Source: an uncultured bacterium (GTDB taxonomy: Bacteria > Babelota > Babeliae > Babelales > Vermiphilaceae). Taken from it: 64,000 bases of DNA. Made by a program: the position numbers and the translations under genes. The stretch spans positions 704,001-768,000 of the forward strand of contig OY969561.1 of the NCBI GenBank assembly GCA_963701085.1, written 5' to 3'. Shown here one piece after another: positions 1,829 through 64,000 of this stretch (positions within the stretch are counted from its first letter, which is position 1; each line of letters starts with the position of its first letter). The notes under the pieces were generated by a model. That model made no database searches, had not been told where the DNA came from, and saw nothing but the letters and a program-made list of their open reading frames with translations.

Positions 1829-3526
1829 ATGAAATATATACTGATATTCAGCTTATTCATCAGCACCAATCTTACCGGCATGCTCACAAAAAATGTTACA
1901 ACAAAAATAAATGACGATCTCTATACAATAATGGCAAAAGTTGAACAAAACAAATTACAAAGAAATAACGGCCTTACATTCTTAAGAGAATGTTTGGATT
2001 TGTACTACAACAAAACAATAGAGCTTACTGGCGTACTCGAAAAAATCTATCATAAAGCCTATACAAATAATGAATGTTTCTTACTCTACAAACAATATCT
2101 ACCATTCTATAAAAAATGTATAGCGAGCATACTTCCACTCGAAATATGCAAACAAATTGATCTTTTTTCAGCATTGCTCAAGAATAAAAAAATCAAAGAA
2201 ACGTATATAAAAAAAATTATTGAAACAAAAGAATCTTATAATAGATTTATGCCTAATCTTACTATCAGCAGGGATGGTCATTACTTTTCTCATGATATTT
2301 TTTACAGAATGGGTGATTATCAAATTAAATTAAGAGCTACAAAAGATGATCAGTTTGGATATGACTTCACGCCTGATACTAGAACACCTTTATATTTCAG
2401 TCCAAATAATAAATATTGCATAGTAGATGAAAGTGATGGAATTTTTTTCTATAACCGCGTTACATCCGCAAGACATCTTCTTCTTAAGCAAAAACAAACT
2501 TGCTTTGTAATTACCATAAGTGATGATAGCCAACATATTTTATTTGAAGGACGAGATATAATGCAGAGCATACCGAAATATAAACTTTGGACTCTTGATG
2601 CGCACGGGATACCACAAACTATTCCTTTACAAGATAATTTATATCACTCTATGAATGTTATATTCCACCCTGACAACAAACATATTATTCACAATACTTG
2701 TGGAGACAAATTATGTTTATACAATCTTGAAACATCTAATGAGACAATAATTGCACCCTCATGCAATGAAAATATCTGTTACTTCAACGAACTAACACTT
2801 ACTTCCGATAACAAAAAAATACTTGCCGAACCTATTTTCAATCCTGGTAATTACATACTGTTTAATATTGAAAATCTTGATAACGTAACATCAGTTACCA
2901 TACCGCAGCAATCATTTTGTCAGGATCAAAATCTGCCAGTCGTATACATTCCTCATAAAAACATGCTCACTCATATAACCAACCAAAGTCGCACATTAGA
3001 AATTCTTGATGAAAAGCTCAATATTATTGCATCTCACACCACAACAGAAGGAATTTATATTACCGCGCTTGCTGTTGATAACAGTGGCAATTATCTTGCA
3101 GCTGGTTATTCTGATGGCACCATCATGATCTGGAACTTATTCAGTTCAAATCCTAAAGAATTTGAAAAAATTTTTGTTGCAAGCAAAGGCCTTATCAAAT
3201 CTCTCACGTTCAGTGAAAATCATTTACTATTCTCGCAATCCACAAGTGGTGAATATTGGGGTACTATTGCCCCCGGAACGGCAACATTATGGGACATCCA
3301 TGGCAATGAAATTATTAATTTTGGCGACAATATTATAAACAGCATCATAAGTCACAATGGAAAAACTATTGTCATTATTTCTGCGCAATTTGAACAGAAT
3401 GATAAAGATACAACCTATAACTGGAACAATTTCTTAACACTCGCTACATACCAGTTAGATGAGACAGCACTTCAATACACACAAAACAATGACCTTACAT
3501 TGGCTCAACTAGCCATGCTTTTGTAA
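1829..3526 (+). CDS. Exported WD40/beta-propeller protein, copy 1
   Basis: Signal peptide; ITALAVDNSGNYLAAGYSDGTIMIWN WD repeat. Start at 1829 inferred from the paralog. Confidence 0.8.
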   Translation: MKYILIFSLFISTNLTGMLTKNVTTKINDDLYTIMAKVEQNKLQRNNGLTFLRECLDLYYNKTIELTGVLEKIYHKAYTNNECFLLYKQYLPFYKKCIASILPLEICKQIDLFSALLKNKKIKETYIKKIIETKESYNRFMPNLTISRDGHYFSHDIFYRMGDYQIKLRATKDDQFGYDFTPDTRTPLYFSPNNKYCIVDESDGIFFYNRVTSARHLLLKQKQTCFVITISDDSQHILFEGRDIMQSIPKYKLWTLDAHGIPQTIPLQDNLYHSMNVIFHPDNKHIIHNTCGDKLCLYNLETSNETIIAPSCNENICYFNELTLTSDNKKILAEPIFNPGNYILFNIENLDNVTSVTIPQQSFCQDQNLPVVYIPHKNMLTHITNQSRTLEILDEKLNIIASHTTTEGIYITALAVDNSGNYLAAGYSDGTIMIWNLFSSNPKEFEKIFVASKGLIKSLTFSENHLLFSQSTSGEYWGTIAPGTATLWDIHGNEIINFGDNIINSIISHNGKTIVIISAQFEQNDKDTTYNWNNFLTLATYQLDETALQYTQNNDLTLAQLAMLL

Positions 3527-3582
3527 ATAATGATATAATGTTGCCATTATCACACAATAATTAATCAAAAAAAAGAAAACTC

Positions 3583-5256
3583 ATGAAATATATACTGATA
3601 TTCAGCTTATTCATCAGCACCAATCTTACCGGCATGCTCACAAAAAATGTTACAACACAAACAAATGATGATCTCTATACAATAATGGCAAAAGTTGAAC
3701 AAAACAAATTACAAAAAAATGACGGCCTTGCATTCTTAAGAGAATGTTTGATCTATGGAGAATGTTCGATCTATGATAAAATCGATACAAATAATGAATG
3801 TTTCTTACTCTACAAACAATATCTACCATTCTATAAAAAATGTATAGCGAGCATACTTCCACTCGAAATATGCAAACAAATTGATCTTTTTTCAGCATTA
3901 CTCAAAAATAAAAAAATCAAAGAAACATATAGAAAAAAAATTATTGAAACACAAAAATTTTATAATAGAGATATACCTAATCTTACTATTAGCAAGAATG
4001 GTCATTACTTTTCTCATAATATTTTTTACAGAATGGGTGATTATCAAATTAAATTAAGAGCTACAAAAGATGATAAATTCGGATATAACATCACAACTGA
4101 TGCTAGAACACCTTTATATTTCAGTCCAAATAATAAATATTGCATAGTAAGAGAAAGTGATGGAATCTTTTTCTATAACCTCATTACATCTGCAAGACGT
4201 TCTCTTATTAAGTCAAAACAAACCTGCTTTGGAATTACCATAAGTGATGATGGCCAACATATTTTATGTGAAGGACGAAATAAAATAGCGCAAAGCACTC
4301 CAATATATAAACTCTGGACGCTTGACGCGCACGGGATACCACAAACTATTCCTTTAAAAAATAATTTTCACTCTATGAATGTTATATTCCACCCTGATAA
4401 CAAACATATTATTCACAATACTTGTGGAGACGAATTACGTTTATACAATCTTGAAACATCTGATGATACAATAATCGCATCCAAATGCAATGCAAATATT
4501 TATTTATTCAACAATCTAACACGTACTCCCGATAACAAAAAAATACTTGCCCAACCTATTATCGAGCAATGCTCTGGTAATTACATACTTTTTAATATTG
4601 AAAATCTTGATAACGTAACATCAGTTACCACGCCACAGCAATCATTTTGTGCCGGACAAGATCTGCCAGTCATATACATTCCTCATAAAAACATGCTCAC
4701 TCATATAACCAACCAAAGTCGCACATTAGAAATTCTTGATGAAAAGCTCAATATTATTGCATCTCACACCACAACAGAAGGAATTTATATTACCGCGCTT
4801 GCTGTTGATAACAATGGCAATTATCTTGCAGCTGGTTATTCTGATGGCACCATCATGATCTGGAACTTATTCAGTTCAAATCCTAAAAAATTTGAAAAAA
4901 TTTTTGTTGCAAATAAAGGCCTTATCAAATCTCTCACGTTCAGTGAAAATCATTTACTATTCTCGCAATCCACAAGTGGTGAATATTGGGGTAATATTGC
5001 CCCCAACACGGCAACATTATGGGATATCCATGGCAATGAAATTATTAATTTTGGCGACAATATTATAAACAGCATCATAAGTCACAATGGAAAAACTATT
5101 GTCATTATTTCTGCGCAGTTTGAACAGAATGATAAAGATACAACCTATAACTGGAACAATTTCTTAACACTCGCTACCTATCAGTTAGATGAGACAGCAC
5201 TTCAATACACACAAAACAATGACCTTACATTGGCTCAACTAGCCATGCTTTTATAA
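3583..5256 (+). CDS. Exported WD40/beta-propeller protein, copy 2 (tandem paralog)
   Basis: Highly similar to 1829..3526, including upstream DNA. Confidence 0.8.
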   Translation: MKYILIFSLFISTNLTGMLTKNVTTQTNDDLYTIMAKVEQNKLQKNDGLAFLRECLIYGECSIYDKIDTNNECFLLYKQYLPFYKKCIASILPLEICKQIDLFSALLKNKKIKETYRKKIIETQKFYNRDIPNLTISKNGHYFSHNIFYRMGDYQIKLRATKDDKFGYNITTDARTPLYFSPNNKYCIVRESDGIFFYNLITSARRSLIKSKQTCFGITISDDGQHILCEGRNKIAQSTPIYKLWTLDAHGIPQTIPLKNNFHSMNVIFHPDNKHIIHNTCGDELRLYNLETSDDTIIASKCNANIYLFNNLTRTPDNKKILAQPIIEQCSGNYILFNIENLDNVTSVTTPQQSFCAGQDLPVIYIPHKNMLTHITNQSRTLEILDEKLNIIASHTTTEGIYITALAVDNNGNYLAAGYSDGTIMIWNLFSSNPKKFEKIFVANKGLIKSLTFSENHLLFSQSTSGEYWGNIAPNTATLWDIHGNEIINFGDNIINSIISHNGKTIVIISAQFEQNDKDTTYNWNNFLTLATYQLDETALQYTQNNDLTLAQLAMLL

Positions 5257-62830: not shown

Positions 62831-63087
62831 ATCTACCCTTTATAGTTAAAAAATGTATACAGTGATAATAATTTTCTATCCTATCACAGAATCGACATTT
62901 TACAATGCCAAAGTCGAATAAACATAAATAATAAAAAATAGCTTTTATTTATTTTAAACACGCGTTAAAATGTCCTCAATTTATCTAACAAAAAAGGAGT
63001 GAGTTACAAAAAAAATAAATAGCCCCATACCACAGTCCACTTAGAAAACATTGCGAGATATACTCATATAAATAAAAAGGAATCTCT

Positions 63088-64000
63088 GTGAAAAAAAATA
63101 CCTTAATCGTCCAATCATTACTTTTACTCCCATTACTCACCGCTGCACCTCTCTTGGGCATGGAATACAAAGAAAAACCAATATCACCTCGAAAAAGTAA
63201 AAGCCAAAAACGCCAAGCAAAACAAAACCAAAATAATACCATAAAAAAAGAACCTATCTCCTACGAAAATCTCAATAGACAACTGATGAGTGAACTTACA
63301 TCATCAACCATTTTTCAAAGCCAACGAGCACAAAACTCATCAGACTCAACTCCTACCAATGAGTACCACCCAATCGTAACTGAAACGGTCAAGACTGTAG
63401 TTGATTATAGTTCATTCCCATTCATAACAGAACTTATAGAAGAGCTTAATGCTGACCCATACGTAGCTCCAACCAACACCCTCATCCAATCTGAACATGA
63501 ATCCATAAACGTGACGCTACCAGAATGTATGCAATCAATCATAGTAAACCAAAACCTGTTGCAATCGGTGATGTTGCCAACAGAAGAAAAAGGATTAACG
63601 TTTTTAGAAAAAGTCTCTTACTATACAAGCACTAAAAGCCAAGTTGTACAAAGTATCATCAAACAACTAGAAAACAAAACCTTTGATGCCAGCAATCTTA
63701 CCTCATTCAATATTTTTACTGAAGCAATTACAACAGCAGCCAACAATAATGACGTTAACTCGCTTGCTACCATAGCGGATCTCTGCAGCAAAAACTATCC
63801 ACAAACAATTAGAATATTTGATGATGTCGTAGCACAACAGGCTTCTGGATTTTTGACCACACACTATATGACAGAGCTGACTCGTGCAAATGAAACAATG
63901 AAAAGCAGACGTCAAGAACATCTCAAAGAATGGACCGTAGAAACTGCTGCATGCGTAACAGCAATGACTGATATAATCACCAAATATAATCAATCAGTAA
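63088..64000 (+). CDS. Exported hypothetical protein (3' truncated by the window; absent from the ORF track)
   Basis: SD AAGGA, GTG start, MKKNTLIVQSLLLLPLLTAAPLLG-MEYK; frame open to the window end. Confidence 0.75.
   Translation, partial: MKKNTLIVQSLLLLPLLTAAPLLGMEYKEKPISPRKSKSQKRQAKQNQNNTIKKEPISYENLNRQLMSELTSSTIFQSQRAQNSSDSTPTNEYHPIVTETVKTVVDYSSFPFITELIEELNADPYVAPTNTLIQSEHESINVTLPECMQSIIVNQNLLQSVMLPTEEKGLTFLEKVSYYTSTKSQVVQSIIKQLENKTFDASNLTSFNIFTEAITTAANNNDVNSLATIADLCSKNYPQTIRIFDDVVAQQASGFLTTHYMTELTRANETMKSRRQEHLKEWTVETAACVTAMTDIITKYNQSV

Follow-up and report, generated by a model that had tools for sequence, protein, structure and literature searches.

The closest described system to the one treated here is the Q-rule of the Bacteroidetes, in which substrates of signal peptidase I (SPI) carry Gln at +1, the residue directly after the cleavage site, and this Gln is cyclised to pyroglutamate (PMC5837995; PMC10653852). 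Neither methionine nor Dependentiae is mentioned in the accessible text of the first of these papers (PMC5837995). In the phylum Dependentiae, signal peptides have been predicted on 79 of the 126 ankyrin proteins of Babela massiliensis (PMC4378268) and, in Chromulinavorax destructans, on 44% of all coding sequences and 78% of ankyrin proteins (PMC6561590). The main text of the latter paper does not use the term 'N-terminal', and the former uses it once, of a domain. Here we consider a 64,000-nucleotide stretch (the window; positions 704,001 to 768,000 of contig OY969561.1, assembly GCA_963701085.1) from an uncultured bacterium of the Vermiphilaceae, in which 17 open reading frames (ORFs) encode a hydrophobic leader with a predicted Sec-type cleavage site directly followed by Met, written Met(+1). 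Across the genome this junction marks a distinct class of putatively exported proteins. We found no published description of Met(+1) in Dependentiae, although supplementary tables may list predicted cleavage sites; a paper on the gain of signal peptides (PMC5952966) has no bearing on it. The descriptive part of our account (the leaders genuine, the junction exact, and a rule that is specific to one class of protein, under selection and patchy among lineages) is very probably right, as judged from sequence; what the Met does is a more tentative matter.

The source genome (G000) is one contig of 1,198,634 bp with 37% G+C, of which the window is C1:704001-768000, and our own caller divided 90% of it into 1235 non-overlapping ORFs. 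The strict rule asked for a net positive charge, an uncharged core of 8 to 20 residues with a mean Kyte-Doolittle hydropathy of at least 1.9, and then Met within 10 residues, with A, G, S, C or T at -1 and A, V, S, T, I, L, G or C at -3. Strict signal-like ORFs number 528, and in 184 of them, called class A, the (-3,-1) site directly precedes Met. A second, independent definition gives 201 Met(+1) ORFs among the 1235 (about one gene in six, or about 11 per 64 kb), and the window is not special in this respect. A looser heuristic flags 607 of the 1235 ORFs as signal-like. Many true cases lie outside class A, either with a core that reaches the Met or with an uncharged n-region.

The position of the Met is sharply defined. 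In signal-like ORFs its frequency peaks shortly beyond the hydrophobic core, with 10.7% at the fifth residue and 11.4% at the sixth, compared with 1.9% in protein bodies, and the residue preceding a Met in this zone is A, G, S, C or T in 185 of 225 cases (82%; counted before any site filter was applied). In class A junctions -2 is often bulky (H, F or Y) and -3 mostly L, T, I, A, S or V, and the median leader is 22 residues long. At the +1 position of all candidate (-3,-1) sites Met is enriched 10.7-fold and every other residue at most 1.4-fold. Under the second definition the frequency-normalised +1 count is 100.8 for Met, 24.6 for Cys and at most 18 for all others. The residue that follows Met(+1) in class A is Glu in 47.3% and Asp in 11.4% (together 58.7%), whereas an acidic second residue occurs in 9.6% of 250 non-signal proteins with a start supported by a Shine-Dalgarno (SD) motif. 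In 130 of 380 cases in this genome Met stands immediately ahead of the first acidic residue.

The leaders resemble ordinary Sec signals. One S26 type I signal peptidase gene was found (a 340-residue ORF at 661135-661956, with PF10502 matched in two pieces at 77 and 36.7 bits) and no second signal peptidase in G000. Cys at +1 occurs in 0 of the 184 class A proteins, indicating neither lipidation nor signal peptidase II. RR is present in the n-region of two of the 184 and a Tat-like motif in one. The type IV prepilin layout (a short charged leader cut behind Gly and ahead of the hydrophobic segment, with Glu at +5) does not apply, the class A hydrophobic segment lying ahead of the Met, and the Q-rule is not seen in G000, where the normalised count of Gln(+1), 10.2, falls within the range of ordinary residues. 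The pseudopilin genes (window 422-871, minus strand; genome 1149260-1150635) have a prepilin motif, G/FSLIE or G/FTLIE (here and below the slash marks the predicted cut), and belong to a different leader class.

In the window, translation places a hydrophobic N-terminal leader and then Met, at the junction predicted by the initial annotation, in all 17 ORFs listed there, and 13 of the 17 also pass the strict rule. Of the remaining four, 1829 is masked by a longer upstream ORF start and 42154 has Asn at -3, both having a charged n-region and a hydrophobic core nevertheless, and 5370 and 36214 are not flagged by the heuristic. The 17 are as follows, with the leader given up to the Met codon.
1829..1882, plus strand, ORF to 3526, Met codon 1880: WD40 protein, 17-residue leader ending NLTG, then Met; PF00400 at 33.4 bits (cut-off 27)
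3583..3636, plus, ORF to 5256, Met codon 3634: WD40 paralogue, 17-residue leader ending NLTG, then Met; PF00400 at 35.6 bits
5370..5429, plus, ORF to 7244, Met 5427: orphan, 19-residue leader ending TING, then Met-Asp, with no Lys or Arg before the core; no Pfam match at E of 0.001 or below
11773..11838, plus, ORF to 12405, Met 11836: weak ankyrin match, 21-residue leader ending THT, then Met-Asp; Ank_5 at 22.8 bits, below the cut-off of 27
12456..12527, plus, ORF to 14117, Met 12525: large ankyrin-repeat protein, 23-residue leader ending SFA, then Met-His; Ank_2 at 263 bits
21039..21104, plus, ORF to 21773, Met 21102: thymidylate kinase Tmk2, 21-residue leader ending SHA, then Met-Glu; PF02223 at 156 bits
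22076..22132, minus, ORF to 21851, Met 22078: small orphan, 18-residue leader ending IMA, then Met-Asp; no family
33615..33683, minus, ORF to 33186, Met 33617: orphan, 22-residue leader ending LKA, then Met-Asp; no family
36214..36294, plus, ORF to 36822, Met 36292: ankyrin protein, 26-residue leader ending TTA, then Met-Leu; Ank_2 at 56 bits
39955..40047, plus, ORF to 40968, Met 40045: ankyrin protein, 30-residue leader ending AYG, then Met-Lys; Ank_2 at 85 bits
40981..41061, plus, ORF to 42132, Met 41059: ankyrin protein, 26-residue leader ending THA, then Met-Glu; Ank_2 at 182 bits
42154..42228, plus, ORF to 43272, Met 42226: ankyrin protein, 24-residue leader ending NYS, then Met-Glu, Asn at -3; Ank_2 at 52 bits
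43320..43388, plus, ORF to 44447, Met 43386: ankyrin protein, 22-residue leader ending SYS, then Met-Glu; Ank_2 at 96 bits
47759..47818, plus, ORF to 48637, Met 47816: ankyrin protein, 19-residue leader ending TING, then Met-Glu; Ank_2 at 44 bits
51807..51866, minus, ORF to 50316, Met 51809: orphan, 19-residue leader ending LLC, then Met-Asp; no family
61603..61671, minus, ORF to 60760, Met 61605: orphan, 22-residue leader ending IFG, then Met-His; no family
63088..63162, plus, leaving the window, Met 63160: orphan with a GTG start, 24-residue leader ending LLG, then Met-Glu; no family

Pfam models thus assign seven of these to ankyrin families above the cut-off and one below it, two to WD40 and one to thymidylate kinase, leaving six with no family. 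The earlier claim that most carry eukaryote-like or toxic domains stands in part: ankyrin and WD40 domains are there, but no toxic domain was found and six proteins have no family at all. Its companion claim, that exported envelope proteins are without Met(+1), agrees with the penicillin-binding protein (PBP) PBP1a at 28373-30388, the Phenol_MetA_deg barrel at 32245-33168, ORF 54977 (SHA/T) and ORF 60767 (IFA/D). Other features of the window may be recorded here. A motif LPxE(I/M)xxxI that resembles the start of an F-box lies soon after the Met in the proteins from 47816 and 42226 onward, and also at genome position 132527 (minus strand); Pfam matched no F-box in the proteins that bear it. A PPIC-type rotamase-domain protein at 61793-62830 (minus strand) has a lipobox-like leader (...LPGC), and the ORF at 59853-60788, named SurA-like in the initial annotation, has no Pfam match.

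BLAST clustering at E < 1e-6 sorts the class A proteins of the genome into 117 groups, of which 86 have a single member, so that on this clustering the Met(+1) rule is not a single-family effect. Pfam searches covered 61 of the 184 class A proteins, those located in the stretches of genome sampled, and 76 of the 240 signal-like proteins that have no Met near the site. In the class A sample Ank_2 was found in 16 and WD40-type models in three, with single matches to thymidylate kinase, C2H2 zinc fingers, PLD and methyltransferase. The sample without Met contains PBPs, FtsW/RodA, MreC, SecDF, glycosyltransferases and proteases, and no ankyrin family is among those matched by at least two of its 76 members. 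An enrichment of Met(+1) in ankyrin and WD40 proteins relative to envelope proteins had been set as a check on the original proposal, and the outcome supports it, Ank_2 being present in 16 of 61 versus at most 1 of 76 (Fisher P 7.6e-6) and the envelope biogenesis proteins lying in the group without Met. An ankyrin-repeat regular expression was too strict (10 ORFs) and phmmer was used in its place; four ankyrin queries gave 32 matches, of which 13 are in class A, two in A', two in the loose set, 15 unflagged and none among the 240 proteins without Met. Class A is also lineage-specific, as indicated by the low share with a tblastn match in about 1.6 Mb of relatives' samples, 16%, against 41% for other signal-like ORFs and 59% for non-signal ORFs. 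No shared C-terminal tag or further N-terminal motif was found in class A, the C-termini being merely Lys-rich.

Met(+1) is conserved within the families. In paralogue pairs of at most 80% identity, drawn from 31 clusters, it is kept in 394 of 556 (71%; cluster mean 68%), whereas other Met residues of the body are kept in 8% and all body residues in 21%. For positions -8 to +8 of the same pairs the retained share is 25-45%, the acidic +2 reaching 43%. This sequence evidence supports the view that Met(+1) is held by purifying selection. Three other loci of the genome may be noted. At 355748-356467 (minus strand) a 240-residue protein has a leader and Met-Glu followed by eukaryote-type C2H2 zinc fingers. 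An array of paralogues of about 110 residues (918219-922950 and 939173) has near-identical leaders (MKNTKKYLSTGVALAIALFAAVQ..) that end in A/ME or A/MA. Ten adjoining leader-less ankyrin ORFs of 60-310 residues lie at about 514400-519800 (minus strand); they appear to be pieces of one large ankyrin gene, or of a few.

The rule is not common to all relatives. With the same pipeline, five relatives pooled gave 15 of 267 signal-like ORFs in class A (5.6%), compared with 184 of 528 in G000 (binomial P ~1e-92). The share is 25%, 20%, 38% and 22% in four genomes of the same genus (G006, G008, G009 and G010), 35% and 7% in other genera of the family (G012 and G045), 24% and 36% in family f11 (G028 and G032), and 6%, 14%, 5%, 4% and 5% in other families (G023, G057, G030, G046 and G021). 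Families f1 and f11 both have the rule, and no homologue pair was found between G000 class A and the two f11 samples. In five homologue pairs between G000 class A and G057 the residue aligned to the Met(+1) is A, I, S and, twice, T. In an Escherichia coli control of 50 kb, a very small sample, one of eight signal-like ORFs fits the rule. One search of the phylum brought up 40 other genomes, all of the same order. For a wider view 151 genomes of the phylum were searched with a DNA proxy (ATGAAA, 45-75 nt, then GSN ATG GAA). G000 has 33 hits and its reversed control one, and no control exceeds four; the proxy also depends on the number of such genes in a genome. At least 10 hits were obtained in 33 of the 151 genomes, distributed as follows.
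Family f1: 17 of 55 genomes
Family f11: 7 of 7
Family f3: 5 of 20
Family f12: 2 of 12
Family f7: 1 of 6
Family f19: 1 of 1
Families f6, f13, f4, f2 and f5: no genome with at least 10 hits
These counts support a rule that is patchy within the phylum and found in part of the Babeliales (Dependentiae).

The origin of one such junction can be followed at the thymidylate kinases. Tmk2 (21039-21773) reads ...FTSHA/MENHKQLNRGILIAIEG and in translated matches is 61-65% identical to a second kinase with which it forms a near-tandem pair, 0.8 kb upstream.
19590-20231, plus strand: Tmk1, housekeeping thymidylate kinase without a leader, starting MPQLTKGILIAIEG; comparator to Tmk2
The leader on Tmk2 implies, as read from its sequence, an exported nucleotide kinase. 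In G010 the Tmk2-type gene has no leader and starts MQQHKQLSRGIL, and its initiator Met aligns with the Met(+1) of G000 (...SHA/MENHKQL against MQQHKQL). The leader was thus added, or later lost, exactly at the initiator codon, and Met(+1) of Tmk2 is, in this one documented case, a former initiator codon. When Tmk1 and Tmk2 are aligned, Tmk1 begins three codons further downstream than the Tmk2 Met. In most relatives the leader-less enzyme is the sole form; a second copy, longer or with a leader, is present in G001, G005 and G007. Among leader-less paralogues searched for a start aligned to Met(+1), only the Tmk pair was informative. Elsewhere in the window, at 44496-45302, a uracil phosphoribosyltransferase whose Pfam domain begins only at residue 70 has a weak signal-like stretch (...LVLQCSA/DP) with no Met; it may be a second exported nucleotide-salvage enzyme or have a mis-set start.

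Leader-bearing forms with and without Met(+1) coexist in a tandemly expanded family of secreted methyltransferases.
G000 121673-122554: methyltransferase family, with 17 leader-bearing homologues at the loci covered, 11 of them reading C/ME, S/ME, A/MD or G/MD and six reading A/AE, A/E or A/QE
The acidic residue is retained in both forms. The tree of the methyltransferase bodies requires at least two changes of the +1 state and does not fix their direction. A recent mobile leader cassette was considered and rejected: in blastn comparisons of the leader plus 60 nt upstream for the 184 genes, 49 matching pairs lie inside clusters of the mature proteins, and between clusters there are only nine marginal pairs of 16-28 nt, mostly near the start region.

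As to export beyond the inner membrane, G000 has two secretin ORFs, two T2SSE-type ATPases and pseudopilins. Secretin copy number was rejected as a correlate of the rule; the same two tandem secretins are present in all nine relatives tested, rule-positive or not, so that this conserved machinery does not track the Met(+1) trait. The secretin-domain ORFs of G000 (995062-995424 and 999622-1000107) lie in open frames of 242 and 443 residues; in the nine relatives they span 738-981 residues, save one ORF of 511 in G021, and the short forms in G000 may be broken genes or assembly frameshifts. In a search for an exported Met aminopeptidase, G000 gave two M24 genes, neither of which has its start in the signal-like list.

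Ribosome-binding signals bear on which start is real. An SD-like motif, defined as a Shine-Dalgarno-like tetramer 4-18 nt upstream, is present at 50.5% of the first starts in class A; the corresponding figure is 43.8% for the starts of all long ORFs, 8.7% for random positions and 1.6% for internal ATGs. Among the 17 ORFs of the window the motif precedes 11 first starts and no internal ATG. The base logo has a G-rich block at -11 to -7 of the first start only, and 151 of the 184 class A genes use the first possible start of the ORF. This pattern indicates that translation includes the leaders and that no SD motif directs initiation at the internal Met; as far as sequence tells, the upstream codon is the real one. 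The initial annotation had named the opposite outcome, an internal Met that is the true start, as one of those that would undo its proposal. That the genes truly begin at the internal Met, the leaders being chance open frames in AT-rich upstream DNA, is scarcely credible, even granting that such DNA read in frame yields much Lys, Ile, Leu and Phe, and that both the ORF caller and the heuristic were of our own making, with no trained predictor. Relatives whose G+C is no higher (0.31-0.34) reach only 5-14% when run through this pipeline (G023 6%, G030 5%, G021 5%, G057 14%), SD-like motifs precede the upstream start, and the leaders have charged n-regions, cores of 8-20 residues and canonical -3 and -1 residues, staying hydrophobic and in frame as paralogues diverge. 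Published SignalP and Phobius predictions in two Dependentiae isolates also place signal peptides on most ankyrin proteins (PMC4378268; PMC6561590). A related proposal is that selection retains the internal ATG as an additional initiation site, from which a cytosolic form would be made alongside the exported one. Selection for an in-frame ATG would account for the conservation of the Met, and, since about half of the G000 genes start without an SD-like motif, its absence does not exclude initiation. Dual initiation is still very improbable: the motif is rarer at internal ATGs than at random positions and absent from all 17 in the window, a bacterial cytosolic copy of an ankyrin or WD40 effector would have no evident use, cytosolic thymidylate kinase is already supplied by the separate leader-less paralogue, and neither the signal-peptidase site exactly before the ATG nor the acidic +2 is explained.

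Two further explanations accept the junction as real and differ in what the Met is for. One holds that new secreted proteins arise mainly by addition of a leader upstream of an existing start, leaving a Met of little or no function, which is the grafting scar of the initial annotation. The Tmk2 alignment with the start of a leader-less orthologue, together with the leader-less housekeeping paralogue 0.8 kb away, documents such an origin once; class A is young and lineage-specific, and AT-rich upstream DNA would readily encode Lys/Ile/Leu/Phe-rich leaders. A scar without function does not, however, account for a Met(+1) conserved at 71% where its neighbours are at 25-45% and other Met residues at 8%, for an acidic +2 in 59% against 9.6% at real second residues, or for the exact placing of the Met behind a canonical site, with a small residue at -1 in 82%, a placing that extension at random would not produce. 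No leader cassette is common at the DNA level, the nine marginal matches giving no sign of a recent mobile one, and the start of Tmk1 lies three codons downstream of the Tmk2 Met. Thus the origin by grafting holds for Tmk2, and a neutral scar as the general explanation is improbable. The other explanation is a sorting mark: the Met-acidic end would be read in the periplasm by a factor that routes the proteins across the outer membrane, through the secretin machinery or vesicles, while others stay in the envelope. It fits the sharp split between effector-like proteins with the rule and PBPs, FtsW/RodA, MreC, SecDF and outer-membrane barrels without it, the conserved Met(+1) and acidic +2 are what a recognised motif would look like, and the machinery for a second step (two secretin ORFs, two T2SSE-type ATPases and pseudopilins) is present. 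The lipoprotein +2 rule and the Bacteroidetes lipoprotein export signal are precedents. The tandem secretins are, on the other hand, found in nine of nine relatives regardless of the rule, type II secretion is known to recognise folded substrates and not linear tags, A/AE orthologues exist inside rule-positive genomes, and class A offers no shared C-terminal or additional N-terminal motif and no identified reader protein. Taken by itself the sorting mark is rather unlikely, yet a periplasmic sorting code is nearly as likely as an effect of the N-terminus in the host.

The reading that we prefer, an N-terminus fitted to the host, would run as follows. Sec-type signal peptides, translated from the upstream start, would be cut by the single type I signal peptidase, and cleavage at a (-3,-1) site directly before Met would leave Met(+1), mostly as Met-Glu or Met-Asp, as the mature N-terminus. 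The rule covers a fast-evolving, host-directed accessory secretome (ankyrin and WD40 proteins, orphans, a secreted kinase and methyltransferases) and not the conserved envelope proteins, and the Met-acidic end would be kept for a role after cleavage. In eukaryotes an N-terminal Met with an acidic residue behind it is a standard type of cytosolic end; Met aminopeptidase leaves this Met in place, and Met-Asp and Met-Glu ends are substrates of the N-terminal acetyltransferase NatB, as are, in other classes, those with Asn or Gln after Met. Proteins delivered to the host cytosol would thereby gain an ordinary-looking, Met-retaining N-terminus that is neither trimmed nor recognised there. That such an end is of benefit in the host is a guess, and the explanation as a whole, descriptive rule and host-compatible function together, we hold tentatively, somewhat more in doubt than in belief.

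Several observations weigh against this reading. Ala and Ser, the default +1 residues, would look eukaryote-like too. The NatB mimicry put forward in the initial annotation gains from the enrichment of Glu and Asp after Met and loses from Asn (5.4%) and Gln (2.7%), which against backgrounds of 5.6% and 4.1% are not enriched; likewise the non-acidic cases show no depletion of hydrophobic residues after Met. In G001 the Tmk2 orthologue bears a leader that is followed by Thr(+1), six of the 17 leader-bearing methyltransferase homologues have a residue other than Met (11 have Met), and in the sampled relatives without the rule the residue ahead of the first acidic one is mostly A, S or I. The non-Met methyltransferases make Met(+1) a strong tendency and no requirement of each protein. 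The data also have limits of their own. The cut sites that define the 184 are inferred from the (-3,-1) heuristic only. Class A includes a few false positives: RpiB and an SDR, conserved enzymes first placed in it and since rejected as products of the start scan, and one true pseudopilin (a genomic pseudopilin lies at 1149260-1150222). The 71% conservation comes from global alignments, which may favour Met-Met matches, and from paralogues that are not independent, and the class A shares of the relatives come from samples of only 100-200 kb each.

A broader proposal is that Met(+1) and the acidic +2 form a dedicated two-residue code in many Babeliales, by which Sec-exported proteins that stay in the envelope would be told from effectors directed to the host, and which would be read after cleavage by a bacterial factor or by host N-terminal surveillance. 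This is doubtful, though possible, as a whole. If true, it would be a second phylum-level '+1 rule' beside the Q-rule, and the only other lineage-wide one for signal peptidase I substrates, and effectors could be predicted from sequence alone. Dependentiae are widespread, mostly uncultured parasites of protists, with export signals on nearly half of their proteins, and the Met(+1) rule provides a handle on how effectors are told from envelope proteins and survive in the host. It marks a host-directed subset of about 200 proteins in G000 and flags candidate effectors among the orphans. Its presence in some lineages and absence from close relatives (33 of 151 genomes have it by the DNA proxy) permits a search, by phylogenetic profiling, for whatever factor reads the rule or imposes it.

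Among known systems, the lipobox +2 rule and the Bacteroidetes lipoprotein export signal are cases in which residues by the cut site set the location of an exported protein. Met(+1) resembles these sorting codes in the two positions concerned, +1 and +2, the informative one being an acidic residue directly behind +1, but unlike them class A is without Cys(+1) (0 of 184), and we know of no sorting machinery that reads a Met-acidic end and of no enzyme that modifies Met(+1). The likeness to eukaryotic NatB-class ends is in the Met followed by an acidic residue; unlike NatB substrates these proteins are made in a bacterium, their Met is internal until the predicted cleavage, and Asn and Gln are not enriched. 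The secretomes of Babela and Chromulinavorax come from the same phylum and comprise the same classes of protein, signal-peptide-bearing ankyrin and eukaryote-like, and the published descriptions, in the parts seen, contain nothing on the residue after the cleavage site (PMC4378268; PMC6561590). With the Q-rule the comparison is closest. In G000 Met stands in place of Gln, which is not enriched, and mostly has Glu or Asp behind it; no modifying enzyme was found for this Met; and, unlike the Q-rule, which extends to most SPI substrates, periplasmic residents included, the Babeliales rule is limited to an accessory, effector-like subset and is patchy in the phylum. In spite of these differences, both are lineage-specific, proteome-wide preferences for one residue right after the SPI site of ordinary Sec leaders, for which the proposed effect lies in the fate or stability of the mature N-terminus and not in export itself.

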